Shown: positions 1 to 16,500, counted from the stretch's first letter. The stretch is 38,907 nt of DNA from Burkholderiales bacterium (GCA_050741735.1 JBOIFZ010000124.1:1-38907); one strand, 5' to 3'. Numbers and translations are program-made. The notes: generated by a model not told the origin, from the sequence alone.

Positions 1-185
1 GAAGCCGATTGGACGGTCTCGGTAACGCTGGTACGGCACGCCGAGGCCGCCAGAATCGCCTCGGACATCTTGGCGCGGGCCGTATAGTCCTGGTACGCCG
101 GCAGCGCGACCGCCGCCAGAATACCGATGATCGCGACCACGATCATCAGTTCGATAAGGGTAAAACCCTTTTGTAAGGCCTTCAT
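1..185 (-). CDS. pilA: Type IVa pilin (major pilin, PilA/PilE-like), N-terminal part; the gene runs off the window edge
   Basis: Reverse-strand translation from the ATG at 185-183 gives [54 protein letters not shown]... This is a short leader ending in Gly, followed by FTLIELMIV with Glu at +5, the type IV prepilin signature. An AAGGAG SD lies 6 nt upstream. Confidence 0.9.
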
Positions 186-248: not shown

Positions 249-264
249 CGCAATCCCCGTGCCA
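249..264 (-). promoter_or_regulatory. Sigma-54 (RpoN) -24/-12 promoter for the pilin gene
   Basis: The minus strand reads TGGCAC-GGGGA-TTGCG, matching the TGGCAC-N5-TTGC consensus. It lies about 65 nt upstream of the pilin ATG. RpoN/PilR-dependent pilin promoters are well established in Pseudomonas, Neisseria and Myxococcus. Confidence 0.75.
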
Positions 265-472: not shown

Positions 473-2110
<1,638 letters not shown>

Positions 2111-2156: not shown

Positions 2157-4547
2157 CTACTTGATGCAGACTGCCCGGACCTGATGCAATTCGGTAATGC
2201 CCTGCAGGACCTTCTCGATGCCGTCCTGTTTCAGCGTCCGCATGCCTTCGGCAAGCGCGGTGGCAACGATTTCCGCTACCTGCGAGTGCTCCTGGATGTG
2301 CTTCTTGAGCGAATCGGTGCCCACCAGCAGCTCGTGCAGGCCTACCCGGCCCTTGTAGCCGGTGCCGCCGCAGACGTCGCATCCAACCGGCGTGTACAAC
2401 TTGAATTGTCCCTTTTCGTCGGCAAACTGCTTGGCCCAATCGCGGTAAATTGATTCGTACGCGGCCTTCGGGTCGCGCTTCCATTGCACGGTGTTCTTCA
2501 GCTCGACGCAGTACTCCTCGAGAATCCCCTTGAGTTCTTCCTGCGTAGCCACGTGAGGTGTCTTGCACTTGGAGCACAGCCGCTTGGCCAGGCGTTGCGC
2601 CAGTACCCCAAGCAATGCGTCGGCAAAATTGAACGGGTCCATGCCCAAGTCGAGCAGGCGGACAATCGACTCCGGCGCGCTGTTGGTATGCAGCGTGGTG
2701 AACACCAGGTGGCCGGTGAGCGAAGCCTCGATGCCGATCGAGGTGGTCTCCTTGTCGCGCATTTCACCCACCATGATGATGTCGGGATCGGCGCGCAAAA
2801 ACGCCCTCATCGCGACCGCGAAAGTCAGCCCGGCCTTGACGTTCATCTGTACCTGGCGCAGGCCCTTCTGGGTGATTTCGACCGGGTCCTCGGCGGTCCA
2901 GATCTTGGTCTCCGGCGTGTTCAGATAACCGAGCGCCGAATGCAGCGTGGTGGTCTTGCCGGAACCGGTCGGGCCGCACACGAAGAACAGTCCGTAAGGC
3001 ATGCTGACCACGTCCTTCAACGTGCCGAGGTTGCGCTCCGACAGTCCCAGTTTGTCGAGCGGGATCGGCTCGCCCCCGCCGAGAATACGCATCACGATGT
3101 CCTCGACGCCGCCCGCAGACGGAATGGTCGCCACCCGCAGTTCGATATCGAGCGGGCCGAATTTCTTGAACTTAATCTTGCCGTCCTGGGGTTTGCGTTT
3201 TTCCGAGATGTCGAGATCGCACATGATCTTCAGGCGCGCGGCAATGGCATTGCGGTAGCTCGACGGCACCGAAATATACGGTTGCAGCGTGCCGTCCTTG
3301 CGGAAGCGGACTTCGGTCTTGCCCTTTCCCGGATACGGCTCGACGTGAATGTCGGAAGCCCCCTGGTGATAGGCGTCCACGATGATCTTGTTTACCAGTT
3401 TCACCAGTTCGTTGTCCTGCGCCAGGGATACGTCGTCGGTTCCGCCTCCGGCCCCACCCTCGTCGTCGCCCTCGTCGTCCATGGTGGACAGCAGTTCGGT
3501 GATGTTCGAGGTGTCACCCACGGCATCCGCGCCGAAGAACTGATCCAGCGTGGCGCTGAATTCGCGCCGGGTGCACACTTTGAAAACCACCTTGTGCTTG
3601 GGAAAGATGTTGGCCACCACTTTCGAGGCGCGCACTTTTTCCGGGTCGGTGGTAAGCACGATCAGGCCTTCCCTCACGTCTTCGATCGGCACCCAGGAGC
3701 TGCTCTCGACGAAATCGCGCTTCAGGTTCCTGAGCAGGTCCATGGGCTTGCCCCGGTCCTGCTTGAACGACTCGTAGGGCACGCGGAAGAACTGGGACAG
3801 CGCTTCGCCGATCGCCGGCGCTTTGACCTGGAACTCGTCGGACAGAACATCCTCGATGTCCCGGTTCTTGCGCCTGGCGGAACGGGTCGCGAGTTCCATT
3901 TCTTCTGCGGAAAGCACCGCATTGGTCACCAGATGGTCGTACTTCCCGCGCAGCATCGCCGTCGGGCGGCTGCGTTGCTTCAGCGCAATGGCAAGGGTTT
4001 CACCGAGATGCGTCGCGCCTTCCTCCGCGACGGCGGAAAAAGGCTGGCCGCTCTTGGCATTGATCACCTGCACCACGCCGATCAGCTCGCCTCCAGGGCC
4101 ATCCGTTATCGGCACCACCAGCATTTGCTTGGTGCGGTATCCGGTGCGGCGGTCCACTTCCTTGAGGAACTTGAGGTCAGCGTTGTGGCCGCGCAGCTCA
4201 TTGTCGTCGTAGACATCGCGGATGCTGATGAGCCTCTTCGACAACGCCACGAAGCCGGCGATGCTCTGCTCGTTGATCGGCAGCTTCAGGTCCTTGAAAG
4301 AAGACAAGCCGGTCTTCACCTTGGAGATGATCGACGTCCTGTCGTCGGAAACCACGTAGATGGTGAGCCGGTCGGCCTCGAACACGGCGCAGATATCCTG
4401 CGACAGCTCCAGCATGATCTCGTCGATATTGCTGGTCGCATGAATCTTGTTCGTGACCACCTGGAGCCTTTTCTGGAACTCCAGTTTATGGCTCATTTCG
4501 GCCAGGTTATGGCCGGTTTGCGGCTTGGTCTCAAAGACTGTGCTCAT
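2157..4547 (-). CDS. GspE/PilB/MshE-family secretion/pilus assembly ATPase with an N-terminal GAF domain
   Basis: 796-aa ORF. The GAF core (VDRRTGYRTKQMLVVPITDGPGGELIGVVQVINAKSG) lies in roughly aa 30-190. It is followed by a GspE_N-like segment, Walker A GPTGSGKTTT, the GEMRD Asp box, and the tetracysteine CSKC...CDVCGGTGYKGR typical of assembly ATPases. An AAGGAAGGA SD precedes the ATG. Confidence 0.9.
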   Translation of the reverse strand: MSTVFETKPQTGHNLAEMSHKLEFQKRLQVVTNKIHATSNIDEIMLELSQDICAVFEADRLTIYVVSDDRTSIISKVKTGLSSFKDLKLPINEQSIAGFVALSKRLISIRDVYDDNELRGHNADLKFLKEVDRRTGYRTKQMLVVPITDGPGGELIGVVQVINAKSGQPFSAVAEEGATHLGETLAIALKQRSRPTAMLRGKYDHLVTNAVLSAEEMELATRSARRKNRDIEDVLSDEFQVKAPAIGEALSQFFRVPYESFKQDRGKPMDLLRNLKRDFVESSSWVPIEDVREGLIVLTTDPEKVRASKVVANIFPKHKVVFKVCTRREFSATLDQFFGADAVGDTSNITELLSTMDDEGDDEGGAGGGTDDVSLAQDNELVKLVNKIIVDAYHQGASDIHVEPYPGKGKTEVRFRKDGTLQPYISVPSSYRNAIAARLKIMCDLDISEKRKPQDGKIKFKKFGPLDIELRVATIPSAGGVEDIVMRILGGGEPIPLDKLGLSERNLGTLKDVVSMPYGLFFVCGPTGSGKTTTLHSALGYLNTPETKIWTAEDPVEITQKGLRQVQMNVKAGLTFAVAMRAFLRADPDIIMVGEMRDKETTSIGIEASLTGHLVFTTLHTNSAPESIVRLLDLGMDPFNFADALLGVLAQRLAKRLCSKCKTPHVATQEELKGILEEYCVELKNTVQWKRDPKAAYESIYRDWAKQFADEKGQFKLYTPVGCDVCGGTGYKGRVGLHELLVGTDSLKKHIQEHSQVAEIVATALAEGMRTLKQDGIEKVLQGITELHQVRAVCIK

Positions 4548-4643: not shown

Positions 4644-5408
4644 CTAAAATTTGAAAACCTGGCCGTTGGACAACATGCGGGGGTTGTAGCGTTCCGCATA
4701 CTCCCCGACTTCCTGCATCGTCACCGTGCCGGCGCCGGGCTTCAGGTGCGTGATATAGACCCGCGCCGGGCGCTTGAGTTTGGCCAGTTCCTCCGCCAGC
4801 ATGCTCGGACACAGATGTTTCGACGTGATCGCCAGCTCCTTCTCCTCGTTCGGGAAGGCCGTCTCGATGATCAGATAGCGCAGGTTCTCGATCTTGTTGA
4901 CTTCTGCCCAAAGCGCGTCGTTGGTGGTGGTGTCGCCCGTGAAAACCAGACTTGCCTCGCCGCTGTCGAGGTGGAACCCGACCGCGGGGACCACGTGATT
5001 GGCCGGCAACACGGTAATCCGGCGTCCGCCGAGATTAACGCATTCGCCCACTGCAAACGTGGTGTATTTCATGTACGGCGCGGACTTGCTCGGAATTTCG
5101 GCGAAATCCGGCCATACCTTCCAGTTGAAAATGTGGTCCTTCAGGATTTTGTGCGTCGGCTCGGTGCAGTGCACGTTGATCGGCGTATCGCGCATCGGGC
5201 CGATGGTGTCCACCAGGAACGGCAGCGAGGTGATGTGATCGAGATGCGAGTGGGTGATGAACACGTGGTCCACCTTCAGCAGCTCGGTGAGGCTCAGATC
5301 CCCGACCCCGGTTCCGGCGTCGATCAGCACGTCGTAGTCGAGCAGCATCGTGGTGGTGCGCAGGTTTCCACCGATTCCGCCACTGCACCCGAGTACCCTG
5401 ATCAGCAT
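4644..5408 (-). CDS. MBL-fold hydrolase resembling class II 3',5'-cyclic-nucleotide phosphodiesterase (CpdP/PDE1-like)
   Basis: 254-aa ORF. The N-terminus is MLIRVLGCSGG...LLDYDVLIDAGTG and the core is THSHLDHITSL (the HxHLDH core of the class II PDE signature; the rest of the signature matches only partly). The ATG lies 2 nt after the cyclase stop codon. Confidence 0.7.
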   Translation of the reverse strand: MLIRVLGCSGGIGGNLRTTTMLLDYDVLIDAGTGVGDLSLTELLKVDHVFITHSHLDHITSLPFLVDTIGPMRDTPINVHCTEPTHKILKDHIFNWKVWPDFAEIPSKSAPYMKYTTFAVGECVNLGGRRITVLPANHVVPAVGFHLDSGEASLVFTGDTTTNDALWAEVNKIENLRYLIIETAFPNEEKELAITSKHLCPSMLAEELAKLKRPARVYITHLKPGAGTVTMQEVGEYAERYNPRMLSNGQVFKF

Positions 5409-5410
5409 CG

Positions 5411-7639
5411 CTATTTAGTCTCGAATTTCCAGGAGCCGTCCCAGCCTTGCTCCGGAGGATTGCTGCGGAATAAGGCAATGCGCCCGAGGAAGAGCTTATA
5501 AAGTCCGCTCGCTGCGTTGCGCTTTTGCAGGTTGAGCAACTGCAATTCTGCCATATCCCAGTCGCGCGCCCGGTAAAGCTTGAGCGCCTGCCCCCAAAGC
5601 TTCAATTCGTCCTGCACCGCCTTGTCGACTTCCACCGCCAGGCCGATCGGTTCGAAAATGGTCACCGGCTTGTCCTTGCCTTTCACCTTCACCTGATCGA
5701 GCTCGCGAAAGACCACGTCGGGAACCTCCGCGCGGGTGCCTTCGCCGACGATCATGTTGACCCCGTATTCCTTGGTCTTGCCTTCCAGGCGCGAAGCCAA
5801 ATTCACCGCATCGCCCATCACGGTGTAGGCCAGACGGATTTCCGAGCCCATGTTGCCAACGCTCATGCGGCCACTGTTCACGCCCACGCCAATGTGGATT
5901 GGGGGCCAGCCCATTTCCTGGAAGTGCGGCTGCAGCGCGTCGAGGACTTTGTGCATCTCCAGACCCGCGAGCACGGCGCTGCGCGCATGCTGTGGATCGT
6001 CGAGCGGAGCCCCCCAGAATGCCATGATGCAATCCCCCATGTACTTGTCGATGGTGCCGAGATGCTTGTAGATCACCCGGGTGAGCGGCGTGAGGAATTC
6101 GTTCATCAGCTTGGAGAGCTGCTTCGGGTCGAGGCCTTCGGAAATGGTGGTGAATCCGCGCACGTCGGTGAACAACACCGACAACTCGCGACTTTCGCCT
6201 TCCATCGAGAAGGACTCGGGATCCCTGCTCATTTCGTCCACCAGCTCGGGCGGTACATACTGGCCGAACAGGCCGGTGAGCTGGCGCTTGGCGCGCGATT
6301 CGACGAAGAAGCCGTAGGACATGTTGAGCGCAAACAGCGTTGCGATAATCAACAGGCCCGAGGCCAGGGGCAACACCAGGTTGCCCTCGGTCCACACCAG
6401 CACGTTGCTGGCGAACACGGCCGCCAGCACCACCACCGTGAGCATAGTGGCGCGTAGCGGATTCACCAGAGGCAGCACCAGCGCCATCGCCAGACCCGAA
6501 AACAACAGCAGCACCACCTCGGCGCCAAGCACATACGGCGGCTTCTGCTTGATCTTGCCGTCGAGCATGCCGGTGATCAAATTGGCGTGAATTTCCACTC
6601 CGGGGTACACGCCTGCCACCGGAGTCGCCCTGAGGTCGAACAGCCCCGGCGTGGTCGTACCCACCAGGACTATCTTGTTCTTCAGATCGTCGATCGGTGC
6701 CGTGCCATGCAACACATCGGTCCCTGAAACATACTTGAAACTGCCCTGGCGGCCGCGGTAGGGAACCAGTGCCGCCACCTGGACATCCACCGGAATGCGT
6801 ACCGAGCCGATGTCGATCCACTCCAGTCCGGGATAGTTCCTGGTGAAGAACTTTTCCTCCGGGAAACCGGGAACGACCGGCGGCGATTCCAGCCCGAGGC
6901 GCACCATCGCCATCGATAGCGATTCGTAGTACGCGCCCCCGTACTCCGCCAGCATCGGCACCCGCCTGGTCACACCGTCTTCGTCGGGCAAGGGGTTGAA
7001 GTGACCGCCGCTTGCCGCGGCCTCCTGGAATTCCGCGAGGTTGGCGCCGTAACCGATCCAGCGGGTAAAGTCGATATTCTTGCCCTTGAAGGTGCCGGCC
7101 GGCAGGCCCGGCTTGGGCAACGCGCCCGTGGCGCGCCCTTTTCCGTCTTCCGACACGACATCGGAAAAGTAATAGCCCAGCACAACTGCGCGATTCCTCA
7201 GCTTCTCGGCGAACGCGCGGTCGTATTCGAGTTGCGGACCGATCTCCTTGAGCACCGCCTGGTACTGCGCGTTGCCCCGGAGCTGGTTCTCGCCGAGCTG
7301 CCTGAGCACCCCCAGGCCGGAACTTTCGTCGCGTTCCGCGAACACCACGTCGAAGCCGACGATGCCCACCTTGTAGTGATCGAACAGCTGGTCGAGCATC
7401 AGCGCGAGCTTGTCGCGGCGCCACGGCCAGCGGCCCTCCGCGGCGAGGCTTTTCTCGTCGATGTCGACGATGACCAGGCGTGGATCGATGCTATTGGGCA
7501 TCGTCAGGCGCAGGCGCGCGTCGTAAATGATGTTTTCGAAGCGATTGACGAAGGGGATTTGGTAGTAACGGGCGGCGTGGCCGACAAAAATCAGAATCAC
7601 CACCAGTCCGAGCGCAATGCGCACCAGATGCTTCTTCAA
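5411..7639 (-). CDS. CHASE2 sensor domain-containing class III (IIIb) adenylate cyclase
   Basis: 742-aa ORF. The N-terminal TM plus CHASE2 region contains VIVDIDEKSLAAEGRWPWRRD, followed by multiple TM helices. The cyclase domain has FTDVRGFTT, GTIDKYMGDCIMAFWGAP and AYTVMGDAVNLASRLEG. The only start candidate is a TTG at 7639, preceded by the SD AAGGGAGA. Confidence 0.88.
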   Translation of the reverse strand: MKKHLVRIALGLVVILIFVGHAARYYQIPFVNRFENIIYDARLRLTMPNSIDPRLVIVDIDEKSLAAEGRWPWRRDKLALMLDQLFDHYKVGIVGFDVVFAERDESSGLGVLRQLGENQLRGNAQYQAVLKEIGPQLEYDRAFAEKLRNRAVVLGYYFSDVVSEDGKGRATGALPKPGLPAGTFKGKNIDFTRWIGYGANLAEFQEAAASGGHFNPLPDEDGVTRRVPMLAEYGGAYYESLSMAMVRLGLESPPVVPGFPEEKFFTRNYPGLEWIDIGSVRIPVDVQVAALVPYRGRQGSFKYVSGTDVLHGTAPIDDLKNKIVLVGTTTPGLFDLRATPVAGVYPGVEIHANLITGMLDGKIKQKPPYVLGAEVVLLLFSGLAMALVLPLVNPLRATMLTVVVLAAVFASNVLVWTEGNLVLPLASGLLIIATLFALNMSYGFFVESRAKRQLTGLFGQYVPPELVDEMSRDPESFSMEGESRELSVLFTDVRGFTTISEGLDPKQLSKLMNEFLTPLTRVIYKHLGTIDKYMGDCIMAFWGAPLDDPQHARSAVLAGLEMHKVLDALQPHFQEMGWPPIHIGVGVNSGRMSVGNMGSEIRLAYTVMGDAVNLASRLEGKTKEYGVNMIVGEGTRAEVPDVVFRELDQVKVKGKDKPVTIFEPIGLAVEVDKAVQDELKLWGQALKLYRARDWDMAELQLLNLQKRNAASGLYKLFLGRIALFRSNPPEQGWDGSWKFETK

Positions 7640-7939
7640 GCTGTCTCCCTTGATTCGCAGCGCGTCGGCTCAACGCCGCATCTGCGGAGCCCGAGCGCGC
7701 AGGCGGAGCAGGCCGGTGGATGCGACCCGGAGTCGCTCGCATTGCACGCCCCTCATGTGCATTCGATGGGCCGCCTACGCGGTCATATCCCCGGAGGGGC
7801 CCCTGTTCCGCGCTCCGGCGTCCCTAGCAGTCATCCGCACCCGGCGCAACGCGCGTCGTCGGACTTATGCAGAGATTCCCTAGTTATCGATGTCTCCTCT
7901 GGCGCGGGTAGTTAAAGTCCGAGCGGGCAGCGGTTCGGC

Positions 7940-8722
7940 TCAGGATTTCAGGAAGAACTCCATCTTTACCCCGGCCAGCTCGATGATGTCGTGATCGTTG
8001 AGCTGGTGGGCCTGGGCATCGAGCGCCTTGCCGTTGACCACCGGGAAGTTGGTGCCTTCCACGTGGGTAATGTAGTAGCCATGTGGCCGCTTGGCGATGA
8101 CCGCCACCTGCACCCCGGGCTTGCCCAGCGTGGTCAGCGGCTTGAGCAGCGGCAGTTCCTTGCCGGAATTGGGCCCGGAGAGAATTTGGATGGTGCCTTG
8201 TCCCCCTGGCATTGCCGTGGCGGCAGGCGCGGCCGCGGCCTGCGACGGAGCCGGCTTGTGCGCTTCCGTCGCCGCCGGCGCGGCCTGGGGATTGATGACG
8301 GTGTCGCTCAGTTTCGCGGCCTGGGGGACGTGGTCCTGGGTATCGGTCGGCGCCTTTGTTTCCGCCTTGGATACTGCGACGGGAGCGCGCAGCACCATGG
8401 TCTTCTCGAACTCGACCTGGCTCATGCTGGCCGGCGCTTCGTTGACGTACTTGAGCTTGTATTTGCCGATTTCGATGATGTCGTTGTTCTGAAGGAAGTG
8501 CTTCTTCACCGGCTGGCCGTTGACCAGCGTACCGTTGGTGCTGCCAAGATCCTCGAGAAAGGAATCCTTGAGGATGGTCATGATGATGGCGTGCTCTCCG
8601 CTGACAGCCAGATTGTCGATCTGAACGTCGTTGTGCGGTTTGCGGCCGATGGTGGATCGCTCCTTGGTGAGGGTGAACTCCTTGATCACCTGGCCATCGA
8701 GACTGAGTATCAACTTCGCCAT
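7940..8722 (-). CDS. FHA domain protein (canonical N-terminal FHA, Ala/Pro-rich linker, degenerate C-terminal FHA-like domain)
   Basis: 260-aa ORF. The N-terminal region STIGRKPHNDVQIDNLAVSGEHAII...GSTNGTLVNG carries the GR...SxxH...NGT FHA signature. The C-terminal domain (TLGKPGVQVAVIAKRPHGYYITHVEGTNFPVVNGKAL) has the FHA fold pattern but lacks the Arg/Ser/His triad. An AAGAGGAAG SD is present. Confidence 0.85.
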   Translation of the reverse strand: MAKLILSLDGQVIKEFTLTKERSTIGRKPHNDVQIDNLAVSGEHAIIMTILKDSFLEDLGSTNGTLVNGQPVKKHFLQNNDIIEIGKYKLKYVNEAPASMSQVEFEKTMVLRAPVAVSKAETKAPTDTQDHVPQAAKLSDTVINPQAAPAATEAHKPAPSQAAAAPAATAMPGGQGTIQILSGPNSGKELPLLKPLTTLGKPGVQVAVIAKRPHGYYITHVEGTNFPVVNGKALDAQAHQLNDHDIIELAGVKMEFFLKS

Positions 8723-8734
8723 ATCTGCTTCCTC

Positions 8735-9559
8735 TTATTTGAACCACGAAAGGAACTTCGCCCACAGGCCTTCGTCAGCCGGGAAGTCCTTCTTCACCCT
8801 GATCAGCACCACGGAGACATTATCACGCCCGCCGTTGTCATTCGCCATCTGTACCAGTTGATCGGCCGCGAGCGGGAGGTTGCTGCCGATCGCCGCCAGG
8901 GTCATTGCGATGTCCTCGTCGTCGACCATGTCATTGAGTCCATCGGAGCACAGCAGATAGATGTCGCCGGGCTCGGCCGGATAAGTACGGATCTCCGCCT
9001 CGACTTCCGGCTCGATGCCCAACGCCCTCGTGACCAGGTTCTTGTTCTGCGAGCGCTTGGCGGCCTCCTTGGTGAGCAGGCCGCTGTCGATTTGTTCCTG
9101 CAGCAGCGAATGGTCGCGGGTGATCTGCTGCAGATTGTCCCCGCGAAAGCGGTAACAGCGGGAATCGCCGATGTGGGCAATCGTTATCTGGTTGTTGCAC
9201 AACAATGTCACCACCAGCGTGGTCCCCATGCCCGCGTACTGCGGCTGGCTGTTGGCCGACTGGAAAATCGAGGTGTTGGCCCTGGCGATGATGTCCCGAA
9301 GCAGGCCGGTCGCCAGCGGAGAACCGGAACTTTCGTCCAGTTCGTGTGGCGCATGCCGGGCCAGCGCTTCGCGGGTCTCGCTTGAAATCAGCGCGGTGGC
9401 GATGCCGCTGGCGACTTCGCCGGCATTGTAGCCACCCATGCCGTCGGCCAGCACCGCCAGCCCGATCTGCGCGTCGGTAGCAGTGCTGTCCTCGTTGTGG
9501 GAGCGCACCATCCCGGTGTGGGTGGCTTTCGCCATCTCCAGGGAGGGGGTCAGATTCAT
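8735..9559 (-). CDS. PP2C-family Ser/Thr protein phosphatase (Stp-like)
   Basis: Motifs are HTGMVRSHNEDS, LADGMGGYNAGEVAS, LLCSDGL and DNGGRDNVSVV. I prefer the ATG at 9559. The ORF track starts at a TTG at 9568. Confidence 0.88.
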   Translation of the reverse strand: MNLTPSLEMAKATHTGMVRSHNEDSTATDAQIGLAVLADGMGGYNAGEVASGIATALISSETREALARHAPHELDESSGSPLATGLLRDIIARANTSIFQSANSQPQYAGMGTTLVVTLLCNNQITIAHIGDSRCYRFRGDNLQQITRDHSLLQEQIDSGLLTKEAAKRSQNKNLVTRALGIEPEVEAEIRTYPAEPGDIYLLCSDGLNDMVDDEDIAMTLAAIGSNLPLAADQLVQMANDNGGRDNVSVVLIRVKKDFPADEGLWAKFLSWFK

Positions 9560-9572
9560 TTCTTCCAATCCA

Positions 9573-12119
9573 TCACAGGGTCACGTCCACGGTTCCGAAC
9601 TGCGCCGCGCATTGGCGCAGCGCCCGCGCCATTTCTTCCCCGCTCTTAAAGCGCGCGGCCACGTCTTTGGCGAGCGCCTTGCTGATGATCGCCACCAGAC
9701 ACGCTGGAAGCGTCGGGTTTATGCCGAGTATGTCGGCAGGGGGCTCGTTGGCGATCTTGAACATCAACTGGGTCATCGAATCGCCCTGGAACGGCAAACT
9801 GCCGCAGGCAAGCTGATACAGCGTCACGCCCAGCGAAAACAGATCGGAATGGCCGTCGATCTTGTCGCCGGCCAGTTGTTCCGGCGACATGTACGAGGGG
9901 GTGCCCAGCACCATGCCGGTCTTGGTCTTGGACGAATCGGTGATGCGCGCGATGCCGAAGTCGGTGACCTTGACCGAATCGACCTGCGCGTCATACATGA
10001 TGTTGGCCGGCTTGATATCGCGATGAACCACGTTCTGCTGGTGTGCGTAGGCCAGGGCCTCGGCGACGCGCGCGACCACTGATAGCGTTTTCGGCAACGG
10101 CAGCAGGTTGCCCGGTTTGGTTTGCGGCACCAGGTCCTTGCCCTTGAGGAATTCCATGGCGATGTAGGCCAGGTCGTGCTCTTCGCCGGCGTCGTAGATG
10201 GTGACGATATTGGGATGGTTGAGCCGGCCGGCAGTCTCGGCTTCGCGGAAGAAGCGTTGCTTCACCTCTTCCAGCTCGTCGGCTTCGAACTCCTGGGACA
10301 GCGCCATGGTCTTGATCGCGACGATGCGGCCGATCTTCGGGTCCTTGCCCAGATAGACAACGCCCATCGCGCCCTTTCCGAGTTCCTTTTCCACCTGATA
10401 ACGGCCGAGCATCGGCTTTTCCACGCCGCCGCCCTCGAGGACCAGCGTGCTGGCGTTGGTGCGCCCGCCGCCGCTGCCAAGGATTACGGTCTCGGACATC
10501 TGCTTGGCGCGATTGAGCTTCTTATTCAGGTCGCGGAACTTCGGATTGTAGGTGGCCATGTTCTCGTACACCGCCTGGGCCTTGTTGAACTGGCGTTTGC
10601 GCTCGAAATCGAGCGCAAGGTTGTACAAGTTGTCCATCAGCTGGTCGTCGAGCGGCACCTTCTTGAACTTGTCGAAGGCCATGTCGAGCTGGCCCTGCCC
10701 CTGGAAAGCCAGGCCCAGCGTGCGGTTGGATTCCGCCGAATCGAGGTCCGACCTGGCCTTGCCGCGCTCGGTGGAGAGAAAGCGCTTGGTGGTGAGCAGG
10801 ACGTGGCCGATCACCAGCAGCACCGCCGAGGCCATCAGCTGGATCCACATCAGCTGGCCCGCCATCAGCACGAAATGCGCGGCAAACAGCGCCGCAAGCA
10901 GCACCGCGCTCACGGTGAAACCCATGCCTGCCTTGAGCCGCGGCAGCAGCAGAATCAGATACAACGCGACCAGCAGGAATGCCGCCTTTTCGACCCAGAT
11001 ACCCCAGGCGGGCGCGACAAAGAAATCCTCCTCGAGAATGCTGGACACCGAGTGCGCCAGAGTCACAACCGGTGCCATTCCAGGCGAAATCGGCGTCACC
11101 TGGTAGGTCCCGATGCCGGCCGCGGTGGCGCCAATCAACACGACTTTGTCCCGGTATTTCTCCGCCGGGAACTTTCCCGAGATCACGTCGTAAAAGGAAT
11201 CCAGCGGAAATGCCGGTTTGCCGTCCCTGTCCTTGTAGAAATAGGTGTACATCTGCAGATAGGGATCGGTATTGATCGTCAGGTTCCCCAACTTCACCCC
11301 TTCGCCCAGCCGCAGTTCGACGTCTGCCGGTCCCAGATTCAGGCTTGTGGCGACGAGAACCAGCGAAAACGACGGGAAATACTGATCGTAGTAGCGCACC
11401 ACCAATGGTTCGGTGCGCGTGCTGCCGTCTACATCCGGAAGCGCGTTAAGGTGGCCGACCGCTGCGGCACCGGCTGCGATTTCTTCGAGCGGCGCACTCG
11501 CCTGCAGCGTCGGCGCCGGGAAAATGTTCCTGTCGCCCGCGCCGATGCGGTCGCTCACTTTGGTGATCTGATTCTTCAGAATGTAATCGGCGAGCGGATG
11601 GTCGGGATTGCCGCGCGGTTCGCCTATGGTAAAAAGCGTCGGCAACGCCACATTGCCGGCCTGCGCCACCGCGGCGGCAAGCTTGCGGTCGCTGTTGAGC
11701 GCATCGTCCGCCTCAGCCAGCACCGACGCGAAATCGGCAAGGTTCTGCTGCTGCGCGGGCGGGAGCGCCTGGTAGAGCTCCGCGAGTTTGTGAATATAGA
11801 CGAGCCCGGGATCCACCTGCGGCTCGAAAAAAAAGGAGGCATAGCCAACTACCTTCGCTCCGGCCTGTTTGAGATTGCCGATCATCTTCGCGTGGATCTC
11901 ACGCGGCCAAGGCCATCGCCCGATGTTGGCGATGCTTCGATCGTCGATGGCGATGACCGCAACGCGCTGCGACGGGGCGTGGCTGGAGGCCCGCACGCCG
12001 AGGTCGTAGGCCTGACGTTCGAGACTTTGAATGAGATCGCTGCCGGACGCGACCAACAAAACGACGGCAATGACCAATCCGAGGAACCAATCGGCTTTCC
12101 AGAAAGCCGTCTTCTTCAT
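9573..12119 (-). CDS. CHASE2 sensor domain-containing Hanks-type Ser/Thr protein kinase
   Basis: The N-terminal CHASE2 region (VIAIDDRSIANIGRWPWPRE) is followed by a TM block and a TPR-like segment. The C-terminal kinase has GKGAMGVVYLG, AIK, HRDIKPANIM, DFGIAR and GTPSYMSPE. I take the ATG at 12119 as the start; an upstream in-frame GTG at 12128 is also possible. Confidence 0.9.
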   Translation of the reverse strand: MKKTAFWKADWFLGLVIAVVLLVASGSDLIQSLERQAYDLGVRASSHAPSQRVAVIAIDDRSIANIGRWPWPREIHAKMIGNLKQAGAKVVGYASFFFEPQVDPGLVYIHKLAELYQALPPAQQQNLADFASVLAEADDALNSDRKLAAAVAQAGNVALPTLFTIGEPRGNPDHPLADYILKNQITKVSDRIGAGDRNIFPAPTLQASAPLEEIAAGAAAVGHLNALPDVDGSTRTEPLVVRYYDQYFPSFSLVLVATSLNLGPADVELRLGEGVKLGNLTINTDPYLQMYTYFYKDRDGKPAFPLDSFYDVISGKFPAEKYRDKVVLIGATAAGIGTYQVTPISPGMAPVVTLAHSVSSILEEDFFVAPAWGIWVEKAAFLLVALYLILLLPRLKAGMGFTVSAVLLAALFAAHFVLMAGQLMWIQLMASAVLLVIGHVLLTTKRFLSTERGKARSDLDSAESNRTLGLAFQGQGQLDMAFDKFKKVPLDDQLMDNLYNLALDFERKRQFNKAQAVYENMATYNPKFRDLNKKLNRAKQMSETVILGSGGGRTNASTLVLEGGGVEKPMLGRYQVEKELGKGAMGVVYLGKDPKIGRIVAIKTMALSQEFEADELEEVKQRFFREAETAGRLNHPNIVTIYDAGEEHDLAYIAMEFLKGKDLVPQTKPGNLLPLPKTLSVVARVAEALAYAHQQNVVHRDIKPANIMYDAQVDSVKVTDFGIARITDSSKTKTGMVLGTPSYMSPEQLAGDKIDGHSDLFSLGVTLYQLACGSLPFQGDSMTQLMFKIANEPPADILGINPTLPACLVAIISKALAKDVAARFKSGEEMARALRQCAAQFGTVDVTL

Positions 12120-12306
12120 GCCACCCACCCTGTTGGATGCCTGAAGGCTTTGATTTCTAATTAGTTAAACGCTAGAGCTAGAGATTTTACGATATTCCCG
12201 TCAAAAGTATATGATTTTTTTCAATACTAATCTTCCAGGGAAGGCCTCGACGCGAGCGTCTCAAGACCAACCTGGGGCGGCAGGCCGGGCATCTGGCGAG
12301 ACCACG

Positions 12307-12706: not shown

Positions 12707-13090
12707 TCAGCCGAACAGCACCAACATCCAGACCACCACAACGTTGATCAGGGAAAACAGCACCGCGGCGCTGCCGATGTCCTTAGCGCGTTTGGCGAGC
12801 CGATGCTGCTCGAGCGATACCCGGTCCACCGTCGCCTCCACCGCGGAGTTCAGCAGCTCGACGATCAGCACCACCAGCACCGAGGCGATCATCAGCGCCT
12901 TGCCCGTGCCGGGCGCTGGAAGTAACAGCGCCAGCGGGATGAGGACCACCGCGAGCCACACTTCCTGGCGGAACGCGTCTTCGTGCCGGTACGCCGCCTT
13001 GAGGCCGTCAAACGAATAGAACAGCGCATTGAAGATGCGCCGCAATCCGGTCTTGCCTTTGTGCGGGCTTTCTATCTGTCCGGAGTCCAT
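12707..13090 (-). CDS. dgkA: Diacylglycerol kinase (DgkA family)
   Basis: 127-aa ORF with three TM segments. [29 protein letters not shown] parallels the E. coli DgkA N-terminus (GYSWKGLRAAWINEAAFRQE). It overlaps the gcvPB stop by 19 nt. Confidence 0.85.
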
Positions 13091-14520
13091 TTGAGGTCGA
13101 GTTCGCGCGCGGCCTTGACGTCGTCGAGACGGCGCACCGGAGTGGTGTGCGGCGCGGATTTGACGAGGTCCGGATCACTGTGTGCCTCGTCGAGGATTTC
13201 CTTCATCGCTGCGACAAAGGCGTCCAGCGTTTCCCTGGATTCGGTCTCGGTCGGTTCGATCAGCAGGCATTCCGGGACCAGCATAGGAAAGTACGTGGTC
13301 GGGGCGTGGAAGCCCTTGTCGAGCAGGCGTTTGGCCACGTCCATCGCCGTGACGCCGGTTTTCTCCTTCAGACCCTTCAGGGTGATGATGAACTCGTGGC
13401 TGGCGCGACGCGAGTCGAATGCCACGTCGAAACCGGCCTGGCGCAATTGCACCATGAGGTAATTGGCGTTCAACGTGGCAAACTCCGCCACCCGCCGCAT
13501 GCCATCGCGCCCGAGCATGCGCGCATACACGTAGGCGCGCAGCAGCACCCCGGCGTTGCCGCCAAACGCAGACATGCGGCCGATCGACTGCGGTCGATCC
13601 TGCTCCGAAAGCCAGCGGAAACGCTCGCCCTCCTTCGCAATGATCGGAAGCGGCAGGAAGGGCAACAGCCGCCGTGCGACGCCCACAGGCCCCGCTCCCG
13701 GACCGCCGCCGCCATGCGGCGTGGCGAAAGTCTTGTGCAGGTTCATGTGGATCACGTCAAAACCCATGTCGCCGGGCTTCACCTTGCCGAGTATCGCGTT
13801 CAGATTGGCACCGTCGTAGTAGAGCAACCCGCCCGCGCCATGCACGATGTCACGGATGTTCTCGATGGTGCGCTCGAATACGCCCAGCGTGGAAGGGTTG
13901 GTGAGCATCAGTCCCGCCGTCTGCGGCCCGACCGCGGCGGTCAGTGCTTTGAGGTCGACGTTGCCTTCGCGGTCAGTCGGCACTTCGGCCACCGTATAGC
14001 CGCACATGGTCGCGGTGGCTGGGTTGGTGCCGTGAGCAGCGTCCGGAACGATGATTTCGCTGCGGGCGTCGTCACCGCGCGCGCGGTGATAGGCGCGGAT
14101 CATCGCGACGCCGGCGAATTCGCCCTGCGCACCGGCCATCGGCGCCAGGCTTACCCCCTCCATTCCGGTCACTTCCAGCAGGATCTCCTGCAATTCGTGC
14201 ATGCAGCCAAGATAGCCCTGGCCGGTCTCCTCCGGCGCAAGCGGATGACGCGCCAGGAATTCCGGCAACATCGCCAGCGCGTTGCATGACCGCGGGTTGT
14301 ACTTCATGGTGCAGGAACCAAGCGGGTAAAAATGGGTGTCGATGGAGAAGTTTCTTTGTGACAGGCGGGTGTAGTGGCGCAGAGCATCCAATTCGGATAC
14401 TTCCGGCAGTCGCGGCAATTCGCTTCGCAGCAACTCCGCAGGCAGGTCCGCGACGATTGCCGTCGGCGGCGCCTGCGCGTGGGCGCGGCGTCCGTGTCTG
14501 GACTGATCGAAGACGAGCAT
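13072..14520 (-). CDS. gcvPB: Glycine dehydrogenase (decarboxylating) subunit 2 (P-protein beta)
   Basis: From the ATG at 14520 the product begins [14 protein letters not shown], which matches typical GcvPB N-termini. The PLP region reads [16 protein letters not shown]. The ORF track extends to a TTG at 14538. Confidence 0.9.
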
Positions 14521-14596
14521 GCTGTTCGGGATCGGCAATTCGGGCGCGGTTCATACGCGCACAGAAGCGCGCGGCCGGCTGTTGTCCGTTACCACA

Positions 14597-15097
14597 TTAT
14601 TTCAGCGCCGCCAGCGCCGCGTCGTAATTCGGCTCGTTGGCGATCTCCGGCACCAGCTCGGAGTGCAGCACCTTGTTGTTCTCGTCGAGCACCACCACCG
14701 CCCGCGCCGTCAACCCCTTGAGCGGGCCGTCGGCGATGTCCACGCCGTACTTGCTGTGAAAATCCCTGCCGCGAAATGTGGACAGCGTCACCACGTTGTT
14801 GAGCCCCTCGGCGCTGCAGAAGCGCGCCATCGCGAACGGCAGATCCGCCGAGATCACCAGCACCACTGCGTTATTCATCCCCGAAGCCTTCTGGTTGAAC
14901 ACGCGCGTGGACTGCGCGCAGGTCGGCGTGTCCAGGCTCGGCACGATGTTCAGCACTTTGCGTTTCCCCGCGTAGATTCTCAGCGACACATCGGCAAGGT
15001 CTTTGCCGGTCAGGCTGAAATCGGGCACGGCGTCGCCTTTCTTTGGCAGATTGCCGGCCACGGCGACGGGATTGCCTTTGAGCGTTACGGTTGCCAT
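14597..15097 (-). CDS. tpx: Thiol peroxidase (Tpx, atypical 2-Cys peroxiredoxin)
   Basis: The last 166 codons of the 382-aa track ORF read [29 protein letters not shown]...[15 protein letters not shown]...FCSAEG. A GGAGA SD precedes the ATG at 15097. Confidence 0.9.
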
Positions 15098-15144
15098 CTG
15101 ACTCTCCTCAAATAAATCCTGATCGTGAATTGTGCAACCCAATG

Positions 15145-16500
15145 TCAACCGCCTGTCGCCGCGGCAAGCGCCGCGACGTAGGCATCGAGATCGGCTTCGG
15201 TCTTGGTCTCGGTGGCACAGACCAGCAGCGCTGCCCCGAGTTCCGGGTAATCGCGGGAAACATCGTGGCCGCCAAGGATACCGCGGGAGCGCATATTCAC
15301 GAGCACCCCATCGGCCGGCCGCGGCAGCCGGATCACCGCCTCGTGGAAAACCGGCGCGCTGAAAACCCGCTGCACGCCGGGGATACGTGTCACCTTCTCC
15401 AGCAGCAACCGGGAATTGGCATGCGATTGCGCAGCCACGTTCTTCAGCCCCTGGGCGCCGAGCATCGCCAGGTAGATCGTCGCGGCTGTGACCGCCAGGC
15501 CCTGATTGGTGCAGATGTTCGACGTGGCTTTGGAGCGGCGGATATGCTGTTCGCGCGCCTGCAGCGTCAGGGTGTATCCGCGCCGTCCTTCGACATCGAC
15601 CGTAGCGCCGACGATGCGGCCGGGCATCTGCCGCACCAGTGCCTGCTTGCACGCCATGAATCCGAAGTAGGGTCCGCCGTTGGCGAGCGGCACGCCCAGC
15701 GGCTGGCCTTCTCCGACCGCGATGTCGGCGCCGTGGCTGCCCCACTCGCCGGGAGATTTCAGCAACGCCAGAGCAGTCGGGTTGACGCAGGCAACGGTCA
15801 ATGCGCCGCGCGCGTGCGCCCAGTCGGTCAAGGCATCCACCGTTTCGAGCACACCGAAGAAGTTCGGCTGCGCAACCACCAGCGCCGCGAAGTCCGCCTT
15901 GCCCAGTGACTCCAGCGTTTCAATGGACACGCGGCCATCCGTCGCGGAGTATGGCACTTCGACCAGTTCGATGCGCTGATTGGAAACGATGCTGGCGACG
16001 ACGCGCCGGTAGGCCGGATTGACGCCGGCGGGAATCAGCACGCGCCGCGCCGACTTGTGCAGGCGCACCGCCATCAGCACCGCCTCGGCAAGCGCGGAAG
16101 CGCCGTCGTAGAGGCTGGCGTTGGCGGCATCGAGCCCGGTGAGCGACGCCATCATGCTCTGGTACTCGTAGAGCAATTGCAGCGTGCCCTGGCTCGCCTC
16201 CGCCTGATACGGCGTATACGCCGAATAAAACTCCCCTCGGGTGGCAATCTGCCAGACCGCGGCGGGAATGTGATGTTCATAGGCACCGGCACCGATGAAG
16301 TTGAGCATCGGCCGGTCCTGGCGCGCTCGTTCATGCATCAGGCGCGTGACCTGCATTTCGTTCATGCCTACAGGGATGCCCGCCAGCCCGTCGCTCTTGA
16401 GGCTTTGTGGAATCTCGTCGAACAGTTGGTCGATTGTCGAAACGCCAACCGCCGCGCACATGGCGCGGATGTCTTCCTCGGTGTGGGGAATGAAGGGCAT
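15145..16500 (-). CDS. gcvPA: Glycine dehydrogenase (decarboxylating) subunit 1 (P-protein alpha)
   Basis: 451-aa ORF beginning [14 protein letters not shown]... and containing [22 protein letters not shown], which is typical of GcvPA. Confidence 0.9.

Follow-up and report, generated by a model that had tools for sequence, protein, structure and literature searches.

A GAF-bearing, non-canonical PilB/GspE-family ATPase with a predicted cyclic-nucleotide pocket in a betaproteobacterial signalling gene cluster next to pilA

According to a 2024 review, assembly ATPases of type IV pili are controlled by c-di-GMP acting on the MshEN/N1 domain, by PilZ–FimX cofactors and by cAMP through transcription (Vfr), and GAF domains are nowhere mentioned there. 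MshE of Vibrio cholerae and the c-di-GMP-binding PilB proteins, PilB of Myxococcus xanthus and PilB2 of Clostridium perfringens, share an MshEN N-terminal domain, an N1D–N2D–CTD layout and a tetracysteine site. The published MshEN motif consists of two tandem 24-residue stretches, RLGxx(L)(V/I)xxG(I/F)(L/V)xxxxLxxxLxxQ, separated by a 5-residue spacer. Thermus thermophilus PilF, another PilB-family motor, has a long regulatory N-terminal extension made of repeated GSPII/MshEN-type domains that bind c-di-GMP. In Pseudomonas aeruginosa, where the Pil-Chp/CyaB/Vfr system links a class-IIIb membrane adenylate cyclase to type IVa pili, cAMP acts transcriptionally via Vfr (PMC11656802).

[quoted passage not shown] Two GAF-HD-GYP enzymes are also relevant: Tlr0485 is activated by cAMP, and the ligand of the PmGH GAF is unknown (10.1101/2021.11.05.467447).

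Here we analysed a 38,907-nt stretch of DNA (the window) from a Burkholderiales bacterium, which encodes an assembly-type ATPase preceded by a GAF domain. The protein has the N1D–N2D–CTD arrangement, the same catalytic boxes and the tetracysteine site of MshE, PilB and PilB2, and, as in MshE and PilB, an N-terminal module of the motor is predicted to sense a second messenger. Unlike in those proteins, this module is an additional N-terminal GAF domain of ~190 aa, predicted to respond to cAMP and not to c-di-GMP. It likewise differs from PilF, whose extension is not a GAF. We found no published description of a GAF–PilB/GspE/MshEN fusion in the literature searched.

Domain layout and family placement of the ATPase

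The gene begins with ATG and encodes a 796-aa protein (Table 1), for which public assemblies had no identical entry. Pfam assigned a GAF domain (aa 41–189, 40.5 bits, cut-off 22.4), an MshEN/T2SSE_N domain (PF05157, aa 254–341, 39.8 bits) and a T2SSE domain (PF00437, aa 376–790, 385.7 bits, cut-off 24.9), the last placing the protein by sequence in the PilT-like/T2SSE secretion ATPase superfamily. The catalytic motifs are intact, comprising Walker A GPTGSGKTTT (aa 525–534, nt 2946–2975), the Asp box EDPVE (at aa 553), Walker B DPDIIMVGEMRD (at aa 587) and the His box TGHLVFTTLHTN (at aa 611). The tetracysteine site consists of two CxxC pairs, C658/C661 and C723/C726, and together with the N1 fold it fits the assembly (extension) subgroup PilB/GspE/MshE. 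The original prediction had described a standard core of this type behind a GAF domain at residues ~30–190; both features were confirmed. In the AlphaFold2 model, the GAF fold spans aa 13–192 (pLDDT ~90) and N1D spans aa 205–340 (pLDDT >90). With a pLDDT <50, the linker between them (aa 195–199) is modelled as flexible, unlike the continuous helix of the CyaB/PDE proteins; this counts against cAMP gating in that it suggests no obvious route for allosteric coupling.

Table 1 Features of the locus, in positions of the window
Feature	Position	Strand	Evidence
Type IVa major pilin (pilA), 5' part, cut by window edge	3..185	-	Translation
Sigma54-type promoter consensus TGGCACGGGGATTGC	250..264	-	65 nt upstream of pilin ATG
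GAF-HD-GYP protein, PmGH-type, predicted c-di-GMP phosphodiesterase	473..2110	-	Pfam GAF + HD + HD_5
GAF-N1D-ATPase gene, non-canonical PilB/GspE family	2157..4547	-	ORF; Pfam GAF + MshEN + T2SSE
N2D + C-terminal ATPase core, aa 376–790	2178..3422	-	Pfam T2SSE; motifs; PDB matches
N1D/MshEN-fold domain, aa 200–345	3513..3950	-	PF05157; AlphaFold2; alignment to PilB N1D
Degenerate MshEN motif pair + 5-residue spacer, aa 201–253	3789..3947	-	Alignment to M. xanthus/Geobacter PilB N1D
GAF domain, cyclic-nucleotide-binding type, aa 13–192	3972..4511	-	Pfam; AlphaFold2; PDB relatives; pocket residues
MBL-fold hydrolase, candidate cyclic-nucleotide phosphodiesterase	4644..5408	-	Pfam Lactamase_B_2, PDEase_II
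CHASE2-class III adenylate cyclase, class IIIb Lys/Thr pair	5411..7639	-	Pfam CHASE2 + Guanylate_cyc
FHA-domain protein	7940..8722	-	Pfam FHA; 42/80 loci
PP2C Ser/Thr phosphatase	8735..9568	-	NCBIfam Stp1_PP2C 247.6 bits, above cut-off; 55/80 loci
CHASE2-Ser/Thr protein kinase	9573..12128	-	Pfam CHASE2 + Pkinase; 39/80 loci

The best PDB matches of the ATPase were PilB (3jc8), PilF (347 bits) and Geobacter PilB, all ahead of EpsE; at 353 versus 310 bits, the protein is closer to PilB than to GspE. The V. cholerae MshEN structure (PDB entry 5HTL) was absent from the PDB matches even at E ≤ 10. The ATPase fell below the cut-offs of both NCBIfam equivalogs, PilB (TIGR02538, 491.9 bits against 675.65) and GspE (TIGR02533, 450.2 against 630.25). 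Ten of its nearest relatives scored 362–546 bits with the PilB model, again all below the cut-off, and neither the ATPase nor these ten received an NCBIfam equivalog name. When 131 ATPase cores were compared by neighbour joining, the tree was star-like and did not resolve whether the GAF-bearing proteins are a single clade, so we draw no conclusion on one versus several fusion events.

That the protein is a housekeeping type II secretion GspE, with its gsp operon just beyond the window, would agree with its GspE score and with the database names of its relatives, which are generic and in some cases read 'GspE/PulE family protein'. However, apart from the shortfall against the GspE cut-off, V. 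cholerae EpsE could be aligned only from aa 373 of the ATPase onward, so that no GspL-binding N1E domain was detected. The window has no gsp genes, and neither have the 10-kb surroundings of 80 related loci; what follows downstream is a type IVa pilin gene. We therefore rejected this assignment, which is barely credible. The best reading is that the protein belongs, as a non-canonical member, to the PilB/GspE family, whose hexameric ATPases assemble type IV filaments; a canonical PilB encoded elsewhere probably works beside it.

The GAF domain and the degenerate MshEN motifs

The GAF core, VDRRTGYRTKQMLVVPI...ELIGVVQVINAK, is located at aa 131–165, and its resemblance to the GAFs of PDE5 and CyaB, noted in the original prediction, could be measured. 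A phmmer search against the PDB returned CyaB2 (1ykd) as the best match (E 1.2e-23) and PmGH as the second, followed by PDE10A GAF-B (4.5e-10), PDE2A (5.9e-9) and PDE5A (2.8e-8); all significant matches to E 2.5e-4 were cyclic-nucleotide-binding GAFs, PmGH excepted. Foldseek with the AlphaFold2 GAF gave probability 1.00 to CyaB2, PDE2A/5A/10A/6 and Lcd1 (Lcd1-cAMP), with the PmGH GAF as the top structural match. The N-terminal domain thus scores as a GAF whose nearest solved relatives, PmGH aside, bind cyclic nucleotides. The parallel drawn earlier with the GAF of the neighbouring HD-GYP protein also held on alignment (27% identity, E 2e-13).

In CyaB2 GAFb, cAMP is contacted by R291, T293, I308, D356 and N359 (PMC4411481). 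These residues align to R60, T62, V77, D132 and T135 of the ATPase GAF, the last being Thr as in PDE GAFs; across 95 family sequences, each is either invariant or conserved to 90% or more. The pocket residue T139 is also conserved, and D132, T139, N163 and F170 are kept in 49–54 of 57 GAFs from divergent relatives. The domain therefore appears, by sequence, to be of the cyclic-nucleotide type with a conserved predicted pocket, in which the purine, ribose and phosphate positions of the CyaB and PDE GAFs are retained. The NKFDE motif (N286, K287, F295, D299 and E300 in PDE5) is preserved in part. On alignment to PDE10A, three of its five residues are present in the window GAF subfamily (N163, F170 and E175), whereas Ala occupies the K position (A164, adjacent to K165) and the D position (A174), a departure from CyaB and the PDEs that counts against cAMP gating. 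Divergent GAF-ATPases mostly have the full motif (N in 54/57, K in 23/57 plus R in 8/57, F in 52/57 and D in 33/57). The GAF-ATPase differs further from CyaB and the PDEs in its output, a hexameric secretion-type ATPase in place of a dimeric cyclase or phosphodiesterase, and in having a single GAF; relatives with two or three tandem GAFs exist.

An alternative is a GAF that senses no cyclic nucleotide but another small molecule, as the GAFs of NifA, FhlA, PtsP and DosS do, or that serves in dimerisation or as a scaffold, the ATPase being regulated otherwise. Besides the two alanines in NKFDE, such a role would fit the PtsP-type GAFs that Foldseek also matched at high TM-scores for the target (3trc 0.85, 3ci6 0.77), and the unknown ligand of the second-closest relative, PmGH. 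Against it stand the otherwise uniformly cyclic-nucleotide-binding PDB matches, the family-wide conservation of the CyaB2 cAMP contacts, and a gene flanked by a cyclase and a candidate phosphodiesterase, with a CAP-type cyclic-nucleotide-binding protein added in relatives. We consider a non-nucleotide role unlikely. Within the preferred cyclic-nucleotide reading, equivalents of R60 and T62 are shared by GAFs that bind cAMP and GAFs that bind cGMP, so the GAF residues are not decisive on the purine and the residues of the neighbouring cyclase were used for the cAMP assignment.

The original prediction had placed the GAF in place of a recognisable MshEN motif. The motif is indeed lost, but the N1/MshEN-fold domain is retained and the GAF is added ahead of it. 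N1D aligned to the N1D of M. xanthus and Geobacter PilB, residue for residue from M. xanthus PilB residue 9, and not to the N1 domain of EpsE. In the M. xanthus PilB register, motif I reads G201/K202/Y203...A210...T221...A224 where R-L-G...G...L...Q is expected, and fails the consensus at positions 1, 2, 3, 21 and 24. Motif II reads D230/I231/E232...F239...F253 and fails at positions 1, 3, 7, 10, 11 and 24. Both thus lack the R, G, G and Q of MshE and PilB, in agreement with the Gly/Gln pattern reported missing from the GspE_N-like segment KYDHLVTNAVLSAEEMELATRSA, which was located at aa 202–224. Neither the strict motif nor a relaxed form, [RKPN]hGxxhhxx[GAS]hhxxxxhxxxhxx[QNKRYWST], matched the window ATPase or any of 120 family members in regular-expression searches.

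Collectively, these comparisons show that the c-di-GMP-binding residues of N1D have been lost while the fold itself was kept. Among the 150 closest clusters at 50% identity, 56 carry a GAF; the MshEN motif is intact in none of these 56 versus 34 of the 94 GAF-less relatives, a strict anticorrelation between the two features among the nearest relatives.

Gene neighbourhood and the adjacent pilin

The ATPase gene lies in a cluster ordered CHASE2 kinase, PP2C, FHA, CHASE2 class-IIIb adenylate cyclase, MBL hydrolase, GAF-ATPase and GAF-HD-GYP. Related loci were found in at least 593 betaproteobacterial species; 80 species loci were examined together with flanks of up to 10 kb, and most of them retain the cluster. 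Carriers include the iron oxidisers Gallionella and Sideroxydans, the ammonia oxidiser Nitrosomonas, and Rhodocyclaceae, and among isolates Chitinimonas viridis and Parachitinimonas caeni. A gene with cNMP_binding and Rhodanese domains (CAP-type cyclic-nucleotide binding) is inserted in ~20 loci. Nitrosomonas loci keep the MBL gene and the ATPase only, which counts against cAMP gating. The window gave no matches in Rfam and no tRNA genes.

The GAF-HD-GYP gene starts 46 nt downstream of the ATPase and is present in 68/80 loci. The HD and GYP motifs are visible in its product, which contains FDKKTGYRSKSFLTVPM...EIIGVLQLINAK. It shares the architecture of PmGH and Tlr0485 and, by prediction, the logic of the cAMP-activated Tlr0485, in which cAMP is coupled to c-di-GMP turnover; unlike in those enzymes, the GAF protein under study is an ATPase and not a phosphodiesterase, and the two window GAFs are no closer than the identity given above. 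The MBL protein (71/80 loci) has the HxHxDH motif as HSHLDH; it scored 66.7 bits with Pfam Lactamase_B_2 and, against a cut-off of 23.7, 45.4 bits with PDEase_II. It reached only 31 bits with NCBIfam cyc_nuc_deg_phdiest (cut-off 400) and E 0.0026 at best with yeast PDE1 (4ojv). Its top PDB matches were generic, of the beta-CASP/RNase Z kind, so a phosphodiesterase role is tentative, and this weak likeness counts against cAMP gating.

The cyclase (55/80 loci) had P. aeruginosa CyaB (PaCyaB, 3r5g) and Cya2 as its best PDB matches, its catalytic domain being nearest to PaCyaB. Its segments FTDVRGFT, GTIDKYMGD and AYTVMGD align with 3r5g and include two metal-binding Asp. The purine-specifying positions are Lys (in GTIDKYMGD) and Thr (in AYTVMGD), as in PaCyaB, an assignment by sequence to the class IIIb adenylate cyclases. 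Cya2, a guanylate cyclase, has Glu/Gly there. It is the next cyclase structure after PaCyaB, and one may ask on this ground whether the sensor reads cGMP instead; the cGMP binders PDE2A, PDE5 and PDE6 also scored nearly as high as PDE10A with the GAF, and isolated GAFs can be promiscuous (PMC4411481). However, the Lys/Thr pair of the neighbouring cyclase and the cAMP-specific CyaB2 as the top GAF match make a cGMP sensor quite improbable. cAMP is thus the ligand that context favours.

The cluster is adjacent to pilA. A full-length orthologue of the truncated pilin, in a related locus, has Pfam Pilin and N_methyl domains. In 35 of the 52 loci with room for it, from several families, the HD-GYP gene is followed by a pilin gene at a distance of no more than 1.2 kb. 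The site TGGCACGGGGATTGC is the sole exact sigma54 consensus match in the window, where 0.16 would be expected, and at least 20 related loci have an exact match ahead of their pilin gene. Since pilA thus has its own sigma54 promoter, its adjacency to the ATPase does not amount to co-transcription, which counts against cAMP gating.

The promoter also bears on whether the ATPase is a type IVa motor at all. It might serve another filament system (MSHA-like, competence or T2SS-like) or be a pure signalling ATPase, with the neighbouring pilA functionally unrelated. No PilC, PilD, PilM–Q or GspF genes were found within 10 kb in the 80 loci, and in other lineages the divergent GAF-ATPases are encoded by orphan genes that lack a neighbouring pilin; both findings count against a cAMP-gated pilus. 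The score below the PilB cut-off points the same way, and Gallionellaceae isolates carry type IVa and MSHA-like clusters elsewhere (PMC3770913). In contrast, the PilB-like N1D and the recurrence of a pilin directly after the ATPase–HD-GYP pair argue for a link to type IVa pili. A motor for another system, or for none, is somewhat unlikely but retains appreciable weight.

A predicted cAMP switch and its spread

On balance, we hold with moderate confidence that the protein is a cAMP-gated, non-canonical pilus ATPase within a cAMP-signalling operon. We infer cAMP as ligand, the way in which it regulates, and the machine of the type IVa pilus as target. The sensory input of the motor would have been exchanged, the c-di-GMP-binding helices being kept as a fold and a cyclic-nucleotide GAF added ahead of them. 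The membrane CHASE2 class-IIIb adenylate cyclase would make cAMP on a cue from outside the cytoplasm, and the MBL-fold hydrolase would probably degrade it. Two proteins, the ATPase and the HD-GYP c-di-GMP phosphodiesterase beside it, would read the messenger through their GAFs, with the cNMP-binding/rhodanese protein as a putative third reader in many relatives. Binding of cAMP to the GAF may allosterically release or block the hexamer, either in its activity or in its docking to the pilus platform. Type IVa pilus extension would thereby be gated post-translationally by cAMP, and c-di-GMP would be lowered in parallel. The CHASE2 Ser/Thr kinase, PP2C phosphatase and FHA protein may form a second input to the cluster. 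In contrast to P. aeruginosa, the predicted cAMP sensor sits on the motor-type ATPase itself, and input to the cyclase comes through CHASE2. The earlier proposal that nucleotide control has moved to the GAF, which stays a prediction, gains support from the adjacent class-IIIb cyclase, the cNMP-binding/rhodanese gene and the anticorrelation between GAF and MshEN motif.

GAF-fused PilB-like ATPases, which make up 56 or more of the 150 nearest clusters and occur in at least 593 betaproteobacterial species, may constitute a large undescribed class of type IV filament motors in which c-di-GMP input is swapped for direct cAMP/cGMP gating through a PDE/CyaB-type GAF. In Betaproteobacteria, this gating would be hard-wired to the CHASE2 cyclase and HD-GYP protein, so that one extracellular cue would both extend pili and lower c-di-GMP. 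We offer this wider picture tentatively, as plausible but somewhat short of probable.

If correct, a motor-borne cyclic-nucleotide GAF would be a fourth route of control over assembly ATPases, direct and post-translational, and a natural case of a second-messenger swap on one enzyme scaffold. The cyclase, candidate phosphodiesterase, two GAF effectors and pilin all lie within ~8 kb, and this compact, testable module is therefore suited to the study of cAMP/c-di-GMP cross-talk, as well as of CHASE2 sensing. The cluster points to an undescribed on/off switch for pili in Betaproteobacteria, including the environmentally important groups named above, in which moving and attaching to surfaces bear on biofilms, water treatment and biogeochemical cycling.

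Domain architecture of the ATPase and loss of its c-di-GMP motif

The ORF of the original prediction begins with ATG and encodes 796 amino acids, and the peptide strings quoted in that prediction were all found in this ATPase and in the downstream HD-GYP protein. The proposed N-terminal GAF domain was detected by Pfam ahead of the MshEN and T2SSE domains, and the core retains its catalytic signatures. An AlphaFold2 model of residues 1–377, built from 95 family sequences (mean pLDDT 81.8), displayed a confident GAF domain at residues 13–192 and a confident N1 domain at residues 205–340, connected by a linker of low confidence (residues 195–199).

The GAF domain had been proposed to stand in place of a recognizable MshEN motif. 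The motif is indeed lost, but the domain is not replaced: the N1 fold is retained, with the GAF domain added ahead of it. Residues 206–375 aligned to the N1 domains of two PilB proteins, that of M. xanthus from its residue 9 and that of Geobacter from its residue 24, and V. cholerae MshEN was absent from the PDB matches of this region even at E ≤ 10. The MshEN signature comprises two copies of RLGxx(L)(V/I)xxG(I/F)(L/V)xxxxLxxxLxxQ separated by a 5-residue spacer (PMC10519070). Read in register, motif I of the ATPase is G201-K-Y...A210...T221...A224 and motif II is D230-I-E...F239...F253, so that neither copy retains its Arg, Gly residues or Gln. Y203, E232 and F239 of the degenerate motifs are invariant in the family alignment. 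[quoted passage not shown] The domain has thus preserved its fold but not its c-di-GMP site. Among the best 150 of 53,105 relatives, found by searching 1.84 billion cluster representatives, the relaxed motif occurred in 0/56 GAF-bearing versus 34/94 GAF-less proteins (Fisher's exact p = 9e-9, a statistic that ignores shared ancestry).

The GAF domain and the place of the ATPase in the PilB/GspE family

In a phmmer search of all PDB chains with residues 1–201 of the ATPase, the best match was Anabaena CyaB2 (1ykd; E = 1.2e-23), through its tandem GAF that binds cAMP. Next came PmGH (4mcw), an HD-GYP enzyme with a GAF whose ligand is not known, then PDE10A GAF-B, PDE2A GAF-B, PDE6 and PDE5. The claimed likeness to PDE5 and CyaB GAFs was thus borne out and, PmGH aside, all matches to E = 2.5e-4 were cyclic-nucleotide GAFs. 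The top Foldseek PDB matches of the modelled N-terminus were PmGH, CyaB2, PDE5A, PDE2A and PDE10A; lower matches comprised PDE6 and the cAMP-bound Lcd1 GAF, mixed with PtsP-type and cyanobacteriochrome/phytochrome GAFs.

In CyaB2 GAFb, cAMP reportedly contacts R291, T293, I308, D356 and N359 (PMC4411481), which correspond to R60, T62, V77, D132 and T135 of the ATPase in a HMMER alignment. Across the 95 aligned sequences, R60, T62, D132 and T135 never vary, and conservation of V77 is at least 90%. The NKFDE motif, as set on PDE5 (N286, K287, F295, D299 and E300; PMC11977230), is partial: N163, F170 and E175 are kept, and K and D are replaced by A164 and A174. A fuller motif is common in 57 GAFs of more distant GAF-ATPases (N in 54/57, F in 52/57, D in 33/57, K or R in 31/57), of which 52 and 49 contain equivalents of D132 and T139, respectively. 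The GAF of the downstream HD-GYP protein proved to be kin, as proposed; 27% identity (E = 2e-13) indicates one subfamily, not recent duplicates.

The ATPase scored 491.9 bits against the NCBIfam PilB model (cut-off 675.65) and 450.2 bits against the GspE model (cut-off 630.25). Ten of its nearest relatives, both GAF-bearing and GAF-less, all fell under both equivalog cut-offs as well. Among PDB relatives, PilB and PilF (342–353 bits) ranked above EpsE (305–310 bits), which could be aligned only from ATPase residue 373, indicating that a GspL-binding N1E domain is absent. Judged by these scores and by the PDB ranking, the ATPase belongs to a non-canonical part of the PilB/GspE family. A homologous GAF is present in 56 to 59 of the best 150 relatives, some of which have tandem arrays of two or three, and the star-like neighbor-joining tree of ATPase cores does not separate one GAF fusion from several. 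Database names of family members are generic, such as 'GAF domain-containing protein' or 'GspE/PulE family protein'.

Several of the nearest GAF-less relatives among the cluster representatives (P0145, P0148, P0153 and P0166) are also ~800 aa long and carry a ~200-aa unannotated N-terminus (one weak DUF4388 match) ahead of an intact MshEN motif; other sensor modules thus seem to be fused to the same ATPase clade. Divergent GAF-ATPases of other lineages are orphans too, one of them amid housekeeping genes. A metagenomic lineage unrelated to that of the window carries a head-to-tail row of three ATPase paralogues, each with two to three GAF domains at its N-terminus (loci L082 and L083), and no pilus or secretion genes were seen near them.

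A conserved gene cluster upstream of a type IVa pilin

The genes for the kinase, PP2C, FHA protein, cyclase, MBL hydrolase, ATPase and GAF-HD-GYP protein follow one another on one strand, with spacings of 2, 96 and 46 nt from the cyclase through the HD-GYP gene. The first three, separated by gaps of only 4 and 12 nt, make up a triad that accompanies the cyclase/ATPase cluster in about half of related loci. The kinase and cyclase are ~27% identical in their CHASE2 domains, indicating two different CHASE2 sensors per cluster. The 300-nt gap after the FHA gene may contain the promoter of the cyclase-to-HD-GYP operon; a simple sigma70 scan of this gap gave no match. The catalytic domain of the cyclase is nearest to P. 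aeruginosa CyaB (3r5g), and its purine-specifying residues, Lys (GTIDKYMGD) and Thr (AYTVMGD), are the class IIIb adenylate-cyclase pair. We tentatively regard the MBL hydrolase as a candidate cyclic-nucleotide phosphodiesterase.

Features of the window, the ATPase and related loci (nt, nucleotides; aa, ATPase residues). The last column gives loci, out of 80, with the gene near the ATPase; as many contigs are short, each count is a minimum.
Feature	Position	Strand	Detail	Loci
CHASE2 Ser/Thr kinase	nt 9573–12128	−		at least 39
PP2C phosphatase	nt 8735–9568	−		at least 55
FHA protein	nt 7940–8722	−		at least 42
Kinase/PP2C/FHA triad	nt 7940–12128	−		
Non-coding gap	nt 7640–7939			
CHASE2 class III cyclase	nt 5411–7639	−		at least 55
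MBL-fold hydrolase	nt 4644–5408	−	Above Pfam threshold of class II cAMP-phosphodiesterase	at least 71
ATPase	nt 2157–4547	−		
GAF domain	aa 41–189		Pfam 40.5 bits, cut-off 22.4	
MshEN (formerly T2SSE_N) domain	aa 254–341		Pfam 39.8 bits	
T2SSE domain	aa 376–790		Pfam 385.7 bits	
Walker A	aa 525		GPTGSGKTTT	
Asp box	aa 553		EDPVE	
Walker B	aa 587		DPDIIMVGEMRD	
His box	aa 611		TGHLVFTTLHTN	
CxxC pairs	aa 658/661 and 723/726			
GAF-HD-GYP protein	nt 473–2110	−	Downstream of ATPase	at least 68
Sigma54 consensus	nt 250–264	−	TGGCACGGGGATTGC (TGGCAC-N5-TTGC), 65 nt upstream of pilin ATG	
Type IVa major pilin gene, 5' part	nt 3–185	−	Start nt 185, AAGGAG ribosome-binding site, cut by left window edge	
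gcvPB	nt 13072–14538		Glycine-dehydrogenase subunit	
gcvPB–gcvPA interval	nt 14539–15144		~600 nt	
gcvPA	nt 15145–16500		Glycine-dehydrogenase subunit	
Wzy_C gene	L001:15150–16604	+	O-antigen-ligase-like membrane protein	
Kinase–cNMP-binding fusion	L001:21289–22716	+	Ser/Thr kinase	
Small rhodanese protein	L001:22766–23026	+	Next after kinase fusion	
cNMP-binding/rhodanese fusion	L017:8708–9790	+	CAP-type	
Triple ATPases	L082:4113–13378	+	970, 954 and 1125 aa; same in L083	

In a survey of one genome per GTDB species, at least 593 species encode a relative of the ATPase. The best 80 are nearly all Betaproteobacteria, with Gallionella, Sideroxydans, Nitrosomonas, Noviherbaspirillum, Chitinimonas, Methyloversatilis, Propionivibrio and Sulfuricella among the genera. 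Isolates with the cluster include Chitinimonas viridis CECT 7703, Parachitinimonas caeni DQS-5, Noviherbaspirillum sp. Root189 and Nitrosomonas sp. Nm51. In ~20 loci, L017 being an example, the MBL gene and the ATPase are separated by a gene that fuses CAP-type cNMP-binding and rhodanese domains; the window lacks it, its MBL–ATPase gap being just 96 nt.

The pilin gene starts downstream of the HD-GYP gene, and its full-length orthologue in the related locus L001 matches Pfam Pilin and N_methyl. Where there was room (52 loci), a type IVa pilin started within 1.2 kb downstream of HD-GYP on the same strand in 35. The sigma54 match is the sole exact consensus in the window, and at least 20 related loci also have this consensus ahead of the pilin. 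None of the PilC, PilD, PilM-Q and GspF families recurred in as many as three of the 80 loci. The rest of the window (12.7–38.9 kb) has housekeeping content and no pil or gsp genes; its gcvPB–gcvPA interval showed no ORF with coding-type GC3 bias and no Rfam match.

In the closest relatives, the pilin is followed by a Wzy_C gene, recalling pilin glycosylation genes of the TfpO/PilO type. About 7 kb past the pilin, at a position just outside the window, they encode a kinase fused to a cNMP-binding domain, a further cyclic-nucleotide reader nearby.

A putative cAMP module acting on type IVa pili

We propose that the CHASE2 cyclase would turn a periplasmic or membrane cue into cAMP, to be read by the GAF domains of the ATPase and of the HD-GYP phosphodiesterase; resetting this signal would probably fall to the MBL hydrolase. 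A precedent for the HD-GYP branch is Tlr0485, a GAF-HD-GYP protein that requires cAMP for activity (10.1101/2021.11.05.467447). Because the ATPase would no longer be able to read c-di-GMP, direct gating by cAMP is expected. The adjacent pilin suggests that the ATPase acts on a type IVa pilus machine and, given its divergence and orphan status, it probably works beside a canonical PilB encoded elsewhere. The analysis shows the anatomy, the motif loss, the pocket conservation, the cyclase specificity residues and the synteny; we infer the GAF ligand, whose purine specificity is unreadable from a GAF sequence alone, the direction of its effect and the machine on which the ATPase acts.

GAF is mentioned neither in a 2024 review of how PilB is regulated (PMC11656802), whose topics are c-di-GMP/MshEN, PilZ-FimX and cAMP-Vfr, nor in the original MshEN paper (PMC5013675). 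Full-text literature searches returned no description of a GAF fusion to PilB, GspE, T2SSE or MshEN, nor of the cluster together with type IV pili or the carrier genera. GAF and PilB-type ATPase families are each well known; their combination with loss of the c-di-GMP site and a conserved cAMP module beside pilA appears to be undescribed. Overall, we lean towards reading this protein as a cAMP-gated, non-canonical PilB/GspE-family ATPase in a pilin-linked cAMP module.
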